Virus record (IMG/VR): IMGVR_UViG_2657245634_000021
Location: 1-6,535 of that record
Strand: one strand, 5' to 3'
Origin: a virus
Lineage: Duplodnaviria; Heunggongvirae; Uroviricota; Caudoviricetes
DNA: 6,535 nt
The position numbers and the translations under genes are program-made. The notes under the pieces are model-generated. The model worked only from the letters and a program-made list of their open reading frames with translations. It was not told the DNA's origin and did not search any database. Below, piece by piece: positions 3,785 to 6,535 of the stretch; position 1 is the first letter of the stretch; each line of letters opens with the position of its first letter.

Positions 3785-3884
3785 GAACGCGCTGGCGCGC
3801 TGTGCCAGCCAGGTAAAAATGATTAAACACTGTCAGGACGAAAACGATGCTCAAACCCGACAGCCTGCGCAGGGCGCTGACTGA
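3594..3884 (+). CDS. lysC: P2-type LysC, Rz1-like outer-membrane lipoprotein spanin, 96 aa
   Basis: ATG at 3594 with GAGG 7 nt upstream, in an alternative frame inside lysB, extending past the lysB stop and into the start of R. Signal peptide with a lipobox-like Cys (MKTKIFAAGTALTCLMLCAGC) followed by a Pro-rich segment (TSAPPAPTPVIVPNACP), hallmarks of o-spanins. Confidence 0.75.
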   Translation: MKTKIFAAGTALTCLMLCAGCTSAPPAPTPVIVPNACPKVSLCPMPGSAPETNGDLSADIRQLENALARCASQVKMIKHCQDENDAQTRQPAQGAD

Positions 3885-4149
3885 TGCCGTCACGGTGCTG
3901 AAAACCAGTCCCGAGATGCTGCGGATATTCGTGGATAACGGGAGTATTGCCTCCACACTGGCGGCGTCGCTGTCATTTGAAAAGCGTTACACGCTCAATG
4001 TCATTGTGACCGACTTTACCGGTGATTTTGACCTGCTCATCGTGCCGGTGCTGGCGTGGCTGCGGGAAAATCAGCCCGACATCATGACCACCGACGAAGG
4101 CCAGAAAAAGGGCTTCACGTTTTATGCAGACATCAACAATGACAGCAGC
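3847..4149 (+). pseudogene. R: P2-type tail completion protein gpR, 5-prime fragment (about 100 codons), 3-prime end replaced
   Basis: ATG at 3847. Translation MLKPDSLRRALTDAVTVLKTSPEMLRIFVDNGSIASTLAASLSFEKRYTLNVIVTDFTGDFDLLIVPVLAWLRENQPDIMTTDEGQKKGFTFYADINNDSS matches recalled P2 gpR. The remaining 24 codons of the ORF (to 4224) are low-complexity and are the antisense of a well-formed ParA-like coding sequence, so I place the breakpoint near 4147-4160. The endpoint is approximate. Confidence 0.7.
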
Positions 4150-4361
4150 TTTGATATCAGCATATCAAATTTCTCAACAAGGGTTATTGCTGGTAACAGT
4201 CCTGCAGCTTCTCGTTCCGCATGATGTTTTGCGGCTGTTCGTTGTAGATCTCCGTTTAACAGGCAGACTTCCCTTCCTTTATTTGCTAGAGCAATAGCCA
4301 GGTTTGATGCAATGGTAGTTTTCCCTGAACCACCTTTGTTCCCACCAACTACAGTAATCAT
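4150..4361 (-). pseudogene. ParA-like (type Ib, deviant Walker A) partition ATPase, N-terminal fragment of about 70 codons
   Basis: Minus-strand ATG at 4359-4361 with GAGG 5-8 nt upstream. Translation MITVVGGNKGGSGKTTIASNLAIALANKGREVCLLNGDLQRTAA... has the deviant Walker A KGGSGKTT (4314-4346) and the downstream D-x-Q region typical of ParA/MinD/Soj ATPases. The ORF ends after 79 aa where it runs into antisense P2 R sequence; intact ParA proteins are about 200 aa or more. Confidence 0.7.
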
Positions 4362-4589
4362 TGCAACCTCATAAATATGATGTGTGAAGTATGATGATAT
4401 TTTGACACGGTAACCTGAGGTGTCAATATGTGTTCATATTTATGAAGTATGAAATATGAAGTGTGTCATGTGATGTAATAAATAATACTTGTGTTTTGTG
4501 ATTTCATAACTATGATAGTGCTCAAATTGAGTATTACATTGCAACCAGAAACAATGATTTACTCAGATTGAGTATTTAAGGGGCTATAG
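4362..4589. promoter_or_regulatory. AT-rich divergent intergenic region with iteron-like repeats; candidate parC-type centromere and promoter/operator
   Basis: Four copies of the octamer TATGA(A/T)G(T/A) at 4376, 4390, 4441 and 4455, as two pairs with 14-bp spacing. The pairs flank a 7-bp inverted repeat TTGACAC (4402-4408) / GTGTCAA (4420-4426) that presents TTGACA, a perfect -35 hexamer, on both strands. A TATGAT -10-like hexamer sits at 4511-4516 and an AAGGGG Shine-Dalgarno at 4577-4582 before the parM ATG. Function is inferred by analogy with R1 parC, where ParR-bound iterons flank the promoter. Confidence 0.5.
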
Positions 4590-5561
4590 ATGAACGTATA
4601 CTGCGATGATGGTTCAACAACAATCAAGTTGGCATGGAATGATAATGGGGAAATCTGTAAGTCGTTGTCGCAAAACTCATTTCGTCATGGATGGAAGGTT
4701 GACGGGTTAGGAATTCGCCAGACATTTAACTATGAACTGGATGGTAAAAAATACACGTATGATGAAGTTAGCAACCAATCTATTCTTACGACTCATATTG
4801 AGTATCAATATACGGATGTTAACCTGTTAGCTGTGCATCACGCTTTACTGAATAGTGGATTAGCGCCTCAGCCTGTATCATTGACTGTGACTTTGCCTAT
4901 CAGTGAGTTCTATACGAAAGAGTGTCAAAAAAATGAACTCAACATTCAGCGTAAAATTGAGAATTTAATGGGGCCGATTCGTCTTAATAAAGGCGATGTT
5001 TTCACCATTGAACACGTTGATGTGATGCCTGAATCATTGCCAGCTGTGTTTTCTCGTCTGGTCGTGGATAAAGTTGGTCAGTTCGAAAAATCGCTGGTAG
5101 TTGATATTGGCGGCACTACGCTTGATGTTGGTGTTATCGTTGGTCAATTTGACTCTGTAAGTGCCATTCATGGTAATTCTGGCATTGGTGTATCTTCAGT
5201 TACGAAAGCTGCAATGAGTGCATTGCGCATGGCATCCAGTGATACCAGTTTCCTCGTTGCAGATGAATTGATTAAACGTCGTAATGACCCGGACTTTGTT
5301 CGGCAGGTTATAAATGACGAAACAAAAACTGATCTGGTCCTTAATACCATTGAGGGGGCTATTGCCAGTTTGGGGGAGCAAGTAGTCAATGAGCTCGGTG
5401 ATTTCCATCATGTGAATCGTGTTTATGTTGTCGGTGGTGGGGCCCCGTTGATCTATGATTCGATAAAAACGGCATGGCACCATCTTGGGCAAAAAGTAGT
5501 GATGATGGAGTCGCCACAGACAGCACTGGTTGAAGCTATCGCGGCTTTCAAAGAGGAGTAA
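4590..5561 (+). CDS. parM: ParM/StbA-family actin-like plasmid segregation ATPase, 323 aa
   Basis: ATG at 4590 with an AAGGGG Shine-Dalgarno. Actin-fold phosphate-binding motifs DDGSTTIKL near the N-terminus and VVDIGGTTLDV mid-protein. Collinear similarity to recalled plasmid R1 ParM (for example FNY, YQYTDVN..AVHHALL, FTI..V.VMPES.PA, GVS.VT, VVGGGA). Confidence 0.9.
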   Translation: MNVYCDDGSTTIKLAWNDNGEICKSLSQNSFRHGWKVDGLGIRQTFNYELDGKKYTYDEVSNQSILTTHIEYQYTDVNLLAVHHALLNSGLAPQPVSLTVTLPISEFYTKECQKNELNIQRKIENLMGPIRLNKGDVFTIEHVDVMPESLPAVFSRLVVDKVGQFEKSLVVDIGGTTLDVGVIVGQFDSVSAIHGNSGIGVSSVTKAAMSALRMASSDTSFLVADELIKRRNDPDFVRQVINDETKTDLVLNTIEGAIASLGEQVVNELGDFHHVNRVYVVGGGAPLIYDSIKTAWHHLGQKVVMMESPQTALVEAIAAFKEE

Positions 5562-5565
5562 TATT

Positions 5566-5958
5566 GTGGACGATGAACGGAAAAGGAAAAAATACACACT
5601 TTATCTGCATCCGGAAAAAGCTGCAGACTTTCAAACTTTGGAAGCGATAGAGTCCGTTCCGCGTTCTGAGCGTGGTGAGCTGTTCCGGAATGCATTTATT
5701 TCTGGAATGGCGTTACACCAACTTGATCCTCGCCTGCCTGTATTGCTGACTGCCATTTTGAGCGAGGAGTTTTCAGCAGATCAGGTTGTAACCTTACTCA
5801 GTCAGACGACTGGATGGAAGCCTTCTCAGGCCGATATCAGAGCTGTGTTGACTGAACTCGGTGCTTCGCAATTTGCTGAAAAAATGCCTCCTTCTGCTAC
5901 TGATTCGGTGCAGGAGGCAATGAATGATGTGCGTCTTAAAATGAAAAAATTATTCTGA
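5566..5958 (+). CDS. parR: ParR/StbB-like centromere-binding adaptor protein, about 130 aa
   Basis: Proposed GTG start at 5566, 7 nt after a strong AAGAGGAG Shine-Dalgarno formed by the last parM codons; stop TGA at 5956-5958. The segment ESVPRSERGELFRNAFISGMALHQLDPRLPVLL resembles R1 ParR (SIPQGERSRLNRAALTAGLALYRQDPRTPFLL, from memory). The ORF-track ATG at 5530 lies inside parM with no Shine-Dalgarno and is rejected. Confidence 0.75.
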   Translation: MDDERKRKKYTLYLHPEKAADFQTLEAIESVPRSERGELFRNAFISGMALHQLDPRLPVLLTAILSEEFSADQVVTLLSQTTGWKPSQADIRAVLTELGASQFAEKMPPSATDSVQEAMNDVRLKMKKLF

Positions 5959-5969
5959 TATATCAGAAT
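5944..5969 (-). terminator. Possible weak intrinsic terminator for the minus-strand umuC-like gene
   Basis: Perfect 18-bp palindrome ATTCTGATATATCAGAAT (5952-5969) about 20 nt past the umuC-like stop (5990-5992), followed on the minus strand by a U-tract (complement of AAAAAA at 5945-5950). The stem is AU-rich and has no real loop, so terminator strength is doubtful. It overlaps the parR stop codon. Confidence 0.3.
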
Positions 5970-5989
5970 GAAGCAATGGGGATCTCAGT

Positions 5990-6535
5990 CTATTGTGTTG
6001 TATACGAAGGCGATAGCATTTCCTGTTTCATTTGCCATTCAGGGGCGGTTCCTCGCCCCGCAAACCACACTTTCCCTTTTCCCGACTGGTTCAGTTCATC
6101 GAGTGTTTTCATTAACTTTTCACTGTTTTTACGGGGCTGGATTTCATCAAATAATCCCGGCTGCGCTATACCCGATGGTGTGAAATCAGCCAGCATGACT
6201 CCTGCCTTCATATAGCGGTACCCTTCACGCCAGACATGGTTTAAGGCTCTGCATGCGGCGGCAATAATGTCCCGGCTGTCCTGTGTGGGCAATGAAAGCT
6301 TTTCCACAGCGGCATTGCTGTAACAGGGTTCTTTTACTGCAAAGGGGGATGTCCGTACAAATGTCGTCACCTGCCGGCAATACTGACGCTCCCCACGTAG
6401 TTTCTCTGCGGCCCGCTCAGCATACTGAACAACAGCCTGGTGCATGGCATCTTTGTCTGTGATTCGTTCACCAAAACTGCGACTACAGACAATCTGCTGT
6501 TTTGCCGGTGGTGCTTCTTCCAGGGATATGCAGGA
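5990..6535 (-). CDS. umuC: UmuC/MucB/ImpB-family Y-family DNA polymerase (Pol V catalytic subunit), C-terminal about 180 codons; 5-prime end beyond the window
   Basis: Minus-strand frame is open from the window edge (6535) to the TAG at 5990-5992; I translated 6446-6535 by hand (SCISLEEAPPAKQQIVCSRSFGERITDKDA) and it continues into the ORF-track protein. The sequence RSFGERITDKDAMHQAVVQYAERAAEKLRGERQYCRQVTTFVRTSPF...VWFAGRGTAPEWQMKQEMLSPSYTTQ is collinear with the recalled UmuC C-terminus (RAAEKLR, TSPF, FAGQG..QWQMK..MLSP.YTT). Confidence 0.85.
   Translation of the reverse strand, partial: SCISLEEAPPAKQQIVCSRSFGERITDKDAMHQAVVQYAERAAEKLRGERQYCRQVTTFVRTSPFAVKEPCYSNAAVEKLSLPTQDSRDIIAAACRALNHVWREGYRYMKAGVMLADFTPSGIAQPGLFDEIQPRKNSEKLMKTLDELNQSGKGKVWFAGRGTAPEWQMKQEMLSPSYTTQ

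Follow-up and report, generated by a model that had tools for sequence, protein, structure and literature searches.

The two partition systems of the E. coli EPEC plasmid pB171 are par1, a type II system made up of parC1-parM-parR, and par2, a type Ib system made up of parC1-parA-parB-parC2. A locus of similar design lies at positions 4164–5958 of the 6,535-nucleotide stretch of viral-record DNA analysed here (the window), in which a minus-strand parA fragment, a 228-bp intergenic region, and a plus-strand parM followed by parR can be recognized. Its parA, however, breaks off early. Is this the double par locus of pB171 itself, and does the break reflect a deletion in a living plasmid or a fault in the assembled DNA? 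The reading we favor, to which we assign a probability of roughly 0.85, is that of a pB171-type double par locus on a piece of an IncF-type plasmid, with the cut in par2 most likely being an artefact.

Results

Identity of the locus

The original prediction, made from the letters of the DNA, was that a ParA-type Walker ATPase gene and an actin-type parM-parR operon are transcribed divergently from a common AT-rich region of 228 bp, as in pB171. The length proved exact, and profile searches recovered the operon and its neighbor as follows.

4164–4361, minus strand: parA', the first 66 codons of a type Ib ParA (par2 of pB171).
4362–4589, no strand: parC1, the shared cis-acting and promoter region between parA and parM; 228 bp, 31% G+C.
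4590–5561, plus strand: parM, actin-like partition ATPase, 323 aa, intact; Pfam StbA_N (1e-63) and ParM C-terminal domain (4e-44).
5566–5958, plus strand: parR, ribbon-helix-helix centromere-binding adaptor, 130 aa, intact; Pfam Plasmid_stab_B (9e-30).
5990–6535, minus strand: umuC, 3' part, Pfam IMS_C and DUF4113; a flanking gene outside the par locus, running to the contig end.

ParM is 43% identical to the ParM of plasmid R1 over 291 aligned residues (E = 1.5e-75), and in that alignment it keeps the sequences DDGST, MPES, DIGGTTLD and GGGA, which cover the phosphate-1, phosphate-2, catalytic Glu and adenosine motifs; the actin-fold residues, the loss of which would have spoken against a ParM, are thus retained. 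The GTG start of parR sits 9 nt after GAGGAG. An upstream TTG start at 5530 (142 aa), taken from a mechanical list of open reading frames, was rejected in favor of the GTG at 5566, because the 130-aa form matches the crystallized ParR of pB171 end to end and agrees with the plasmid annotation. In particular, over its full length ParR is identical to PDB 2JD3, the crystallized pB171 protein (PMC5016525), at 128 of 130 positions (98.5%), the two substitutions being F103/A104 in the window versus S103/V104 in 2JD3. All 66 residues of the ParA fragment are identical to the start of UniRef Q0H055, which is listed as the ParA of pB171 (PMC13245405) and is also the full-length ParA of plasmids pDEC15A-1 and 55989p. 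Judged by these two protein comparisons (ParR with 2JD3 and the ParA fragment with Q0H055), as distinct from a DNA alignment, this is the double par locus of pB171 itself or an almost identical allele, and the predicted likeness was therefore correct down to the named plasmid.

At the DNA level the locus is 95–99.5% identical in 979 plasmids, which are enterobacterial. The right-hand 2.4 kb of the window comes from a virulence plasmid of the IncF type that is essentially pDEC15A-1 (NZ_CP077478.1), a plasmid of E. coli O111:H21: the plasmid segment differs from pDEC15A-1 by a single SNP in 2,372 nt, the sole difference in parC1 is at 4538 (A versus C), ParM and ParR are identical to their pDEC15A-1 counterparts, and an annotated umuC stands at the matching place. 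In pDEC15A-1 par2 is intact; there and in 55989p, the two plasmids that we examined, parA (214 aa) is followed by parB (91 aa, CopG family). An Rfam scan of the whole window returned no RNA family.

The ParA fragment

The minus-strand open reading frame extends from 4361 to 4122 and encodes 79 aa, of which only residues 1–66 (4361–4164) are ParA.

4122–4163, minus strand: tail of the parA' reading frame, 13 codons plus stop, on the antisense strand of a P2-like phage gene R.

The fragment contains a deviant Walker A box (GGNKGGSGKTT). Nothing of the 214-aa protein is encoded after residue 66 (about 70% is missing), and neither the complete set of Walker A, A' and B motifs nor the surfaces for interaction with ParB and DNA are present. 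Because everything past residue 66 is missing, the fragment cannot be an active ATPase. The chimeric 79-aa product is already deposited in RefSeq/UniRef as a "ParA family protein" (WP_283236559.1).

Might the fragment instead come from another P-loop NTPase, such as MinD, MipZ, ArsA or an Fe-S cluster carrier, leaving a single type II parMRC (stbAB) locus? The 79-aa frame matches the CbiA/ParA/MipZ P-loop families of Pfam, the fragment also matches MipZ, MinD, ArsA and SRP54 profiles, and some plasmid records label the full-length protein "division plane positioning ATPase MipZ". The non-partition profile matches arise because the fragment holds the Walker A region only. Its best NCBIfam match is ParA_partition, which also comes first for the full-length plasmid protein, whose best PDB relatives are ParA and ParF; Q0H055, with which the fragment is identical, is an experimentally studied partition ATPase; and in intact plasmids the next gene encodes the 91-aa CopG/RHH ParB, with repeat arrays on the flanks. 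The best relatives of the fragment are thus partition ATPases, as the original prediction had it, and the identification as another NTPase, effectively refuted by these findings, has next to no probability.

Repeats and a promoter-like site in the shared region

The repeats predicted for the shared region are present far above chance. In parC1 we counted 12 T(A/G)TGA boxes, eight of which have a partner exactly 7 bp away, against expectations of 3.8 and 0.06, respectively; neither observed value was reached in any of 5,000 dinucleotide shuffles. The boxes form three clusters, with a promoter-like site between the first two.

4369–4394, no strand: box cluster 1, four T(A/G)TGA boxes spaced 7 bp apart; it sits between the start of parA and the promoter-like site.
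4399–4426, minus strand: sigma-70 promoter-like site directed toward parA (TTGACA, 16 nt, TG-CAAAAT); a consensus match only.
4434–4473, no strand: box cluster 2, six boxes spaced 7 bp apart, five of them T(A/G)TGA and one degenerate.
4497–4515, no strand: box cluster 3, another three T(A/G)TGA boxes, spaced 7 bp apart.
4521–4535, plus strand: putative ParR repeat 1, CTCAAATTGAGTATT, containing an exact copy of the 10-mer (4526–4535).
4562–4576, plus strand: putative ParR repeat 2, CTCAGATTGAGTATT, containing an exact copy of the 10-mer (4567–4576), 14 bp before the parM start.

The same boxes recur in pDEC15A-1, where nine phased copies lie within the 137 bp downstream of parB (the parC2 region). 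Boxes both in parC1 and downstream of parB agree with the published description of the pB171 par operon, which has direct-repeat arrays on its upstream as well as its downstream side, and we presume that they are ParB sites. The site at 4399–4426, flanked by box clusters 1 and 2, may act as the parA promoter; it was the only site found by the promoter scan, which detected no plus-strand par1 promoter above threshold. Weaker plus-strand candidates at about 4527–4556 fell below threshold, and we do not claim them as promoters.

The 10-mer ATTGAGTATT occurs in exactly two copies, 41 bp apart, just upstream of parM; when one mismatch is allowed, the window contains four matches where 0.29 are expected. 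Binding of pB171-type ParR to two 10-bp repeats upstream of parM is reported in a published account (PMC9426499), and the repeats at 4526 and 4567 are accordingly named here as putative ParR sites of that type.

The junction within parA

To the left of codon 66 the plasmid sequence gives way to prophage DNA.

3847–4163, plus strand: gene R, 5' part, a P2-like tail completion gene, 106 codons; Pfam P2_Phage_GpR (1e-38).

Alignment of the window with the plasmid and the prophage places a blunt join at 4163|4164, where the joined sequences have about 1 nt in common. Gene R DNA stands in place of the rest of parA, parB and parC2, so that the window contains neither parB nor the second centromere array. 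The prophage segment is 100% identical to a prophage on the chromosome of E. coli 15A; in the closed genome of that strain the prophage is chromosomal and the par DNA is on pDEC15A-1.

The window matches the end of NCBI draft contig CCBW01000004.1 without a difference. This single contig contains at least three blunt joins of unlinked DNA (mnmE|dgcN-like, recF|phage L and phage R|parA), which is why we infer that the cut most likely arose as a chimera in the assembly or the library and not by deletion in a living plasmid. A comparison with 5,426 complete E. coli genomes found none of the three joins, 72,556 plasmids likewise lack the phage|parA junction, and the exact junction 34-mer was found neither in metagenome contigs nor in GTDB genome contigs. 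The same public contig carries a RecF-gpL fusion reading frame and a gpR fusion reading frame. A literature search for the assembly accessions (CCBW01, CDRY01 and GCA numbers) gave no match.

Two observations count against an artefact. First, besides GCA_000939035.1, a second draft assembly, GCA_001373235.1, has the identical phage|parA junction (on a 6-kb contig, in two samples), and a random chimera is unlikely to recur unless reads, strain or pipeline are common to both. Second, in strain 15A the breakpoints do not coincide with the edges of repeats, and they share only about 1–2 nt, so they are not explained by a simple repeat-mediated mis-join in a de Bruijn graph. Indeed, a graph mis-join at a repeat boundary was rejected, both native flanking sequences being single-copy in the closed 15A genome. 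A restriction-site or cloning origin was also considered; an EcoRV site lies 5 bp from the join, and there is none at the join.

These observations bear on the alternative that the truncation is real, namely that illegitimate recombination linked the plasmid's par region, broken at codon 66 of parA, to a fragment of a P2-like prophage, which in one isolate was further joined to the chromosome at recF, leaving an orphan par1 that lacks ParA, ParB and parC2 and is freed of ParB cross-repression. That three samples and two separate assemblies at NCBI have the identical junction, with contigs running straight across it and breakpoints away from repeats, is in keeping with such an event, as are the 1 nt of microhomology and the imperfect 8/14 similarity just before the junction, features also seen in illegitimate recombination. 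However, at least three blunt rearrangements would have had to take place independently in a span of 12.7 kb, interrupting mnmE and recF beside oriC; to the left of the phage segment the two assemblies differ (recF versus phage M); all of the segments are unlinked and intact in a near-identical closed genome; and the junction is found in no complete genome or plasmid. We therefore regard a real truncation as unlikely. The original statement that parA is cut after about 70 codons and that ParB is absent is accurate for the window, where 66 codons remain, but a state in which only par1 is left is probably not biological, given the several joins in the contig and the intact par2 of a near-identical closed plasmid.

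Discussion

The gene identities and repeat anatomy described above, together with ParR repeat binding, dual ParB arrays and pushing by ParM as known from the literature, suggest how the locus would work. The complete half is par1: ParR dimers, of the ribbon-helix-helix fold, would bind the two 10-bp repeats upstream of parM to form a partition complex, ATP-bound ParM would polymerize into actin-like filaments, held at their ends by the ParR/parC1 complexes of sister plasmids, and insertion of subunits at the filament ends would push the plasmids apart. ParR at parC1 would also repress the par1 promoter. The second system, par2, consists of the ParA Walker ATPase, the small RHH protein ParB, the presumed ParB boxes in parC1, and the second array, parC2; what the window holds of it, the parC1 boxes and 66 parA codons, is non-functional as written.

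The locus resembles that of pB171 in gene order, divergent orientation and a central region of about 200 bp (228 bp here), as well as in the near-identity of ParR, the identical ParA N-terminus and the phased short repeats of parC1. It differs in that parA ends at codon 66, with prophage DNA replacing parB and parC2, and in the two ParR substitutions. With parMRC (stbAB) of R1/NR1 it shares the parC-parM-parR operon architecture, a homologous ParM that keeps the nucleotide-binding motifs, and a ParR that is an RHH adaptor acting on direct repeats upstream of parM and autoregulating. Whereas the R1 literature describes ten 11-bp iterons in parC, of which ParR needs at least two, only two 10-bp repeats are present here, and the R1 locus has neither a divergent type I par partner nor ParB boxes in its centromere. 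The likeness to type Ib systems (TP228 ParF/ParG/parH and pSM19035 delta/omega) lies in the full-length plasmid ParA of 214 aa, a small Walker ATPase that lacks an N-terminal HTH and counts ParF among its closest solved relatives, and in a ParB partner that is a small RHH protein binding short-repeat arrays that double as operators. Unlike those systems, the window has just the first 66 ParA residues, and the pB171 type carries a pair of centromere arrays, parC1 and parC2, one of which is common to a type II system.

The double par locus is already known, and the present copy is an ordinary one. References for the pB171 locus are Ebersbach and Gerdes (2001, PNAS 98:15078) and Ringgaard et al. 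(2007, JBC 282:3134). Our findings carry little biological weight, as genetic, biochemical and structural work on this double par locus goes back to 2001 and about 1,000 sequenced plasmid copies are near-identical. What they do bring out is that CCBW01000004.1, a public draft contig, fuses DNA of chromosomal, prophage and plasmid origin at blunt junctions, and that scans for truncated or fused genes should first compare such junctions with closed genomes. It is very unlikely that the junction is real; if it were, an E. coli O111:H21-like lineage would have a rearranged replicon in which a complete par1 lies beside a P2 prophage fragment, without its ParA/ParB partner and cross-repression, and in one isolate this DNA would lie next to dnaA-dnaN-recF', a plasmid ParMRC integrated beside oriC. 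Such a lineage would be a natural experiment on par1 in the absence of cross-regulation by ParB.

A double par locus of the pB171 type

Chromosomal, prophage and plasmid DNA make up the three parts of the window, which is a mosaic with the following features.

1-1600: E. coli dnaN and codons 1-166 of recF, matching several chromosomes at 100% identity
1600-4163: late region of a P2-like prophage (L', X, holin, lysozyme, lysA, lysB/C, R'), 100% identical to the O111:H21 15A chromosome
4164-6535: plasmid DNA
4361 to 4122, minus strand: parA' ORF of 79 aa, starting MITVVGGNKGGSGKTT (ORF list; Pfam CbiA/ParA/MipZ P-loop group)
4362-4589, between parA and parM: parC1 intergenic region, 228 bp, 31% G+C (ORF list and sequence)
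4426-4399, minus strand: promoter-like site toward parA (TTGACA, 16 nt, TG-CAAAAT; promoter scan)
4590-5561, plus strand: parM ORF of 323 aa (Pfam StbA_N, 1e-63; ParM C-terminal domain, 4e-44)
5566-5958, plus strand: parR, 130 aa, GTG start preceded by GAGGAG at 9 nt (Pfam Plasmid_stab_B, 9e-30)

The ORFs, the Pfam and NCBIfam matches and the 31% G+C content therefore confirm the arrangement described in the original prediction, in which a minus-strand ParA-type gene and a plus-strand ParM/ParR operon diverge from a 228-bp region. The ParA fragment, whose top NCBIfam match is ParA_partition, is identical to the first 66 residues of the full-length ParA of the intact plasmids, which is the exact UniRef Q0H055 sequence, listed as pB171 ParA (PMC13245405); its closest homologs are partition ATPases. 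ParM is 43% identical to R1 ParM across 291 aligned residues (E = 1.5e-75), with the conserved actin-fold ATPase motifs retained (phosphate-1 DDGST, catalytic MPES, phosphate-2 DIGGTTLD and adenosine GGGA). ParR is identical, end to end, at 128 of 130 residues to PDB 2JD3, which PMC5016525, citing Møller-Jensen 2007, gives as the crystallised ParR of pB171. Its residues 103-104, in the C-terminal part beyond the Plasmid_stab_B match, are F103/A104 in the window versus S103/V104 in the crystallised protein; E. coli plasmid 55989p has S103. An upstream TTG at 5530 was rejected as the parR start in favor of the GTG at 5566, which gives the 130-aa form.

When positions 4150-6000 were compared with PLSDB, 1,039 plasmids matched, 979 of them with at least 80% query coverage and most at 95-99.5% identity; the hosts were chiefly Escherichia, Salmonella and Klebsiella, and the majority of the plasmids were conjugative. 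On 55989p and on pDEC15A-1 of E. coli O111:H21 strain 15A, the minus-strand gene encodes a complete 214-aa ATPase and is followed by a gene for a 91-aa protein that other sources call a CopG-family (ribbon-helix-helix) regulator. Next to the par2 side of these plasmids (1825-3160 of L005, their DNA beyond the window) come ccdAB and a gene resembling a site-specific integrase/resolvase, with vapBC as a further neighbor in pDEC15A-1, which places the double par locus within a dense plasmid-maintenance block. Taken together, the ParR, ParA and ParM matches, the similarity to plasmid DNA and the gene content identify the locus as the double par locus of pB171 or an allele that differs from it by a few substitutions, with pB171 itself compared through its ParR and ParA proteins. 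The original prediction named the right system.

Repeats of the shared intergenic region

Within parC1, the 10-mer ATTGAGTATT occurs in exact copies at 4526 and 4567, each inside a 15-nt repeat CTCA(A/G)ATTGAGTATT; the repeats are 41 bp apart, and the second copy of the 10-mer ends 14 bp ahead of the parM start, an arrangement reported for ParR binding (PMC9426499). With up to one mismatch, this putative ParR 10-mer has 4 matches in the window versus 0.29 expected. One-mismatch copies lie on the same strand inside parM (4797-4806, ATTGAGTATC; 4956-4965, ATTGAGAATT) and may be due to chance or represent weak secondary ParR sites. Position 4538, between the two ParR repeats, is A in the window versus C in pDEC15A-1 and 55989p; the A creates a second copy of CATTGCAACC, the other copy of which overlaps the parA start (4359-4368).

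The pentamer T(A/G)TGA, counted on either strand, occurs 12 times in three clusters (4369-4394, 4434-4473 and 4497-4515), and for 8 of these the distance to a partner box is exactly 7 bp. In 5000 dinucleotide shuffles the average was 3.8 boxes and 0.06 phased pairs, and no shuffle came up to the observed values. In pDEC15A-1, the 137 bp downstream of parB, where parC2 would be expected, contain the box 9 times in the same 7-bp phase, and PMC7602700 describes direct-repeat arrays upstream and downstream of the par operon in pB171. On this basis we infer that the T(A/G)TGA boxes are ParB sites. The promoter-like site toward parA, the only one above the scan threshold, has box cluster 1 on one side and cluster 2 on the other, a position that would suit autoregulation by ParB; the scan found no par1 promoter above threshold. 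No Rfam family matched anywhere in the window.

Origin of the parA truncation

Base-by-base comparison placed the phage-plasmid join at 4163/4164, with one base in common, and the chromosome-phage join at about 1600/1601, with two. At the latter, recF, downstream of dnaN (1-1101), runs bluntly into the P2-like head-completion gene L at a point midway through that gene, creating a 266-aa RecF-gpL fusion ORF (1101-1901; SMC_N and Phage_GPL matches) found in only one public contig. The phage-parA junction likewise produces both the 79-aa ParA' ORF and a 125-aa gpR' ORF (3847-4224, plus strand) that overlaps it and ends in antisense parA sequence. The chimeric 79-aa ORF (4122-4361, minus strand), ParA' plus phage antisense, is present in RefSeq/UniRef as a "ParA family protein" (WP_283236559.1, UPI0024B57E5D).

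With 0 mismatches, the window equals the terminal part of CCBW01000004.1, an NCBI draft contig of GCA_000939035.1. Elsewhere in this contig (about 617/618 of L007, its part upstream of the window), mnmE is cut to 374 aa and runs directly into a gene for a CHASE8-GGDEF diguanylate cyclase; every one of the 5,426 complete E. coli genomes has the two parts at different sites. This third blunt join suggests an assembly that is chimeric throughout. Three blunt joins of unlinked DNA in 12.7 kb, two of which break mnmE and recF near oriC, point to a chimeric contig and argue against a real rearrangement. So does the closed genome of strain 15A, in which the prophage is chromosomal and the par DNA belongs to pDEC15A-1, where both parA and parB are intact; the plasmid segment differs from pDEC15A-1 by one SNP (4538, A versus C) in 2,372 nt, and the ParM and ParR protein sequences are identical. 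Moreover, no sequence spanning the phage-parA junction was present among the 5,426 complete E. coli genomes and 72,556 plasmids, and the junction was absent from metagenome contigs and GTDB genome contigs.

A real rearrangement, in which this lineage may truly carry a par1-only remnant fused with DNA of the prophage and the chromosome, would nevertheless account for the same phage-parA junction in another assembly (GCA_001373235.1; a 6-kb contig, two samples), where the phage segment runs on into gene M without the recF join, and for breakpoints that do not coincide with repeat boundaries in strain 15A. Recurrence in two assemblies could also arise through common reads, strain or pipeline, and we consider a rearrangement unlikely; that the parA truncation is an artefact of a chimeric contig has a probability of roughly 0.85. 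Window position 6535 lies inside umuC, and the ends of both junction-bearing draft contigs there differ by no more than 2 nt; in pDEC15A-1, umuC runs about 700 nt further, with umuD and a dinI-like gene coming after it.

Proposed working of par1 and par2

As written in the window, par1 (parC1, parM and parR) is complete. In this type II system, ParR dimers would bind the repeats to form a partition complex, which would capture the ends of ParM-ATP filaments, and filament growth by insertion would drive sister plasmids apart; ParR would also repress its own promoter. Regulatory cross-talk between the par1 and par2 loci was reportedly observed by Ringgaard et al. in 2007. In the type Ib par2 system, ParB on parC1 and parC2 would stimulate nucleoid-bound ParA-ATP, after which a ParA gradient or structure positions plasmids (PMC4270457). 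As written, par2 cannot work because the ATPase ends past the Walker A region, after 66 residues, and parB and parC2 are absent; the original prediction that only the ParMR side could function holds for the window in this form. The locus itself is already known and very common, and its only unusual aspect, the truncation, most likely reflects the contig and not the plasmid.
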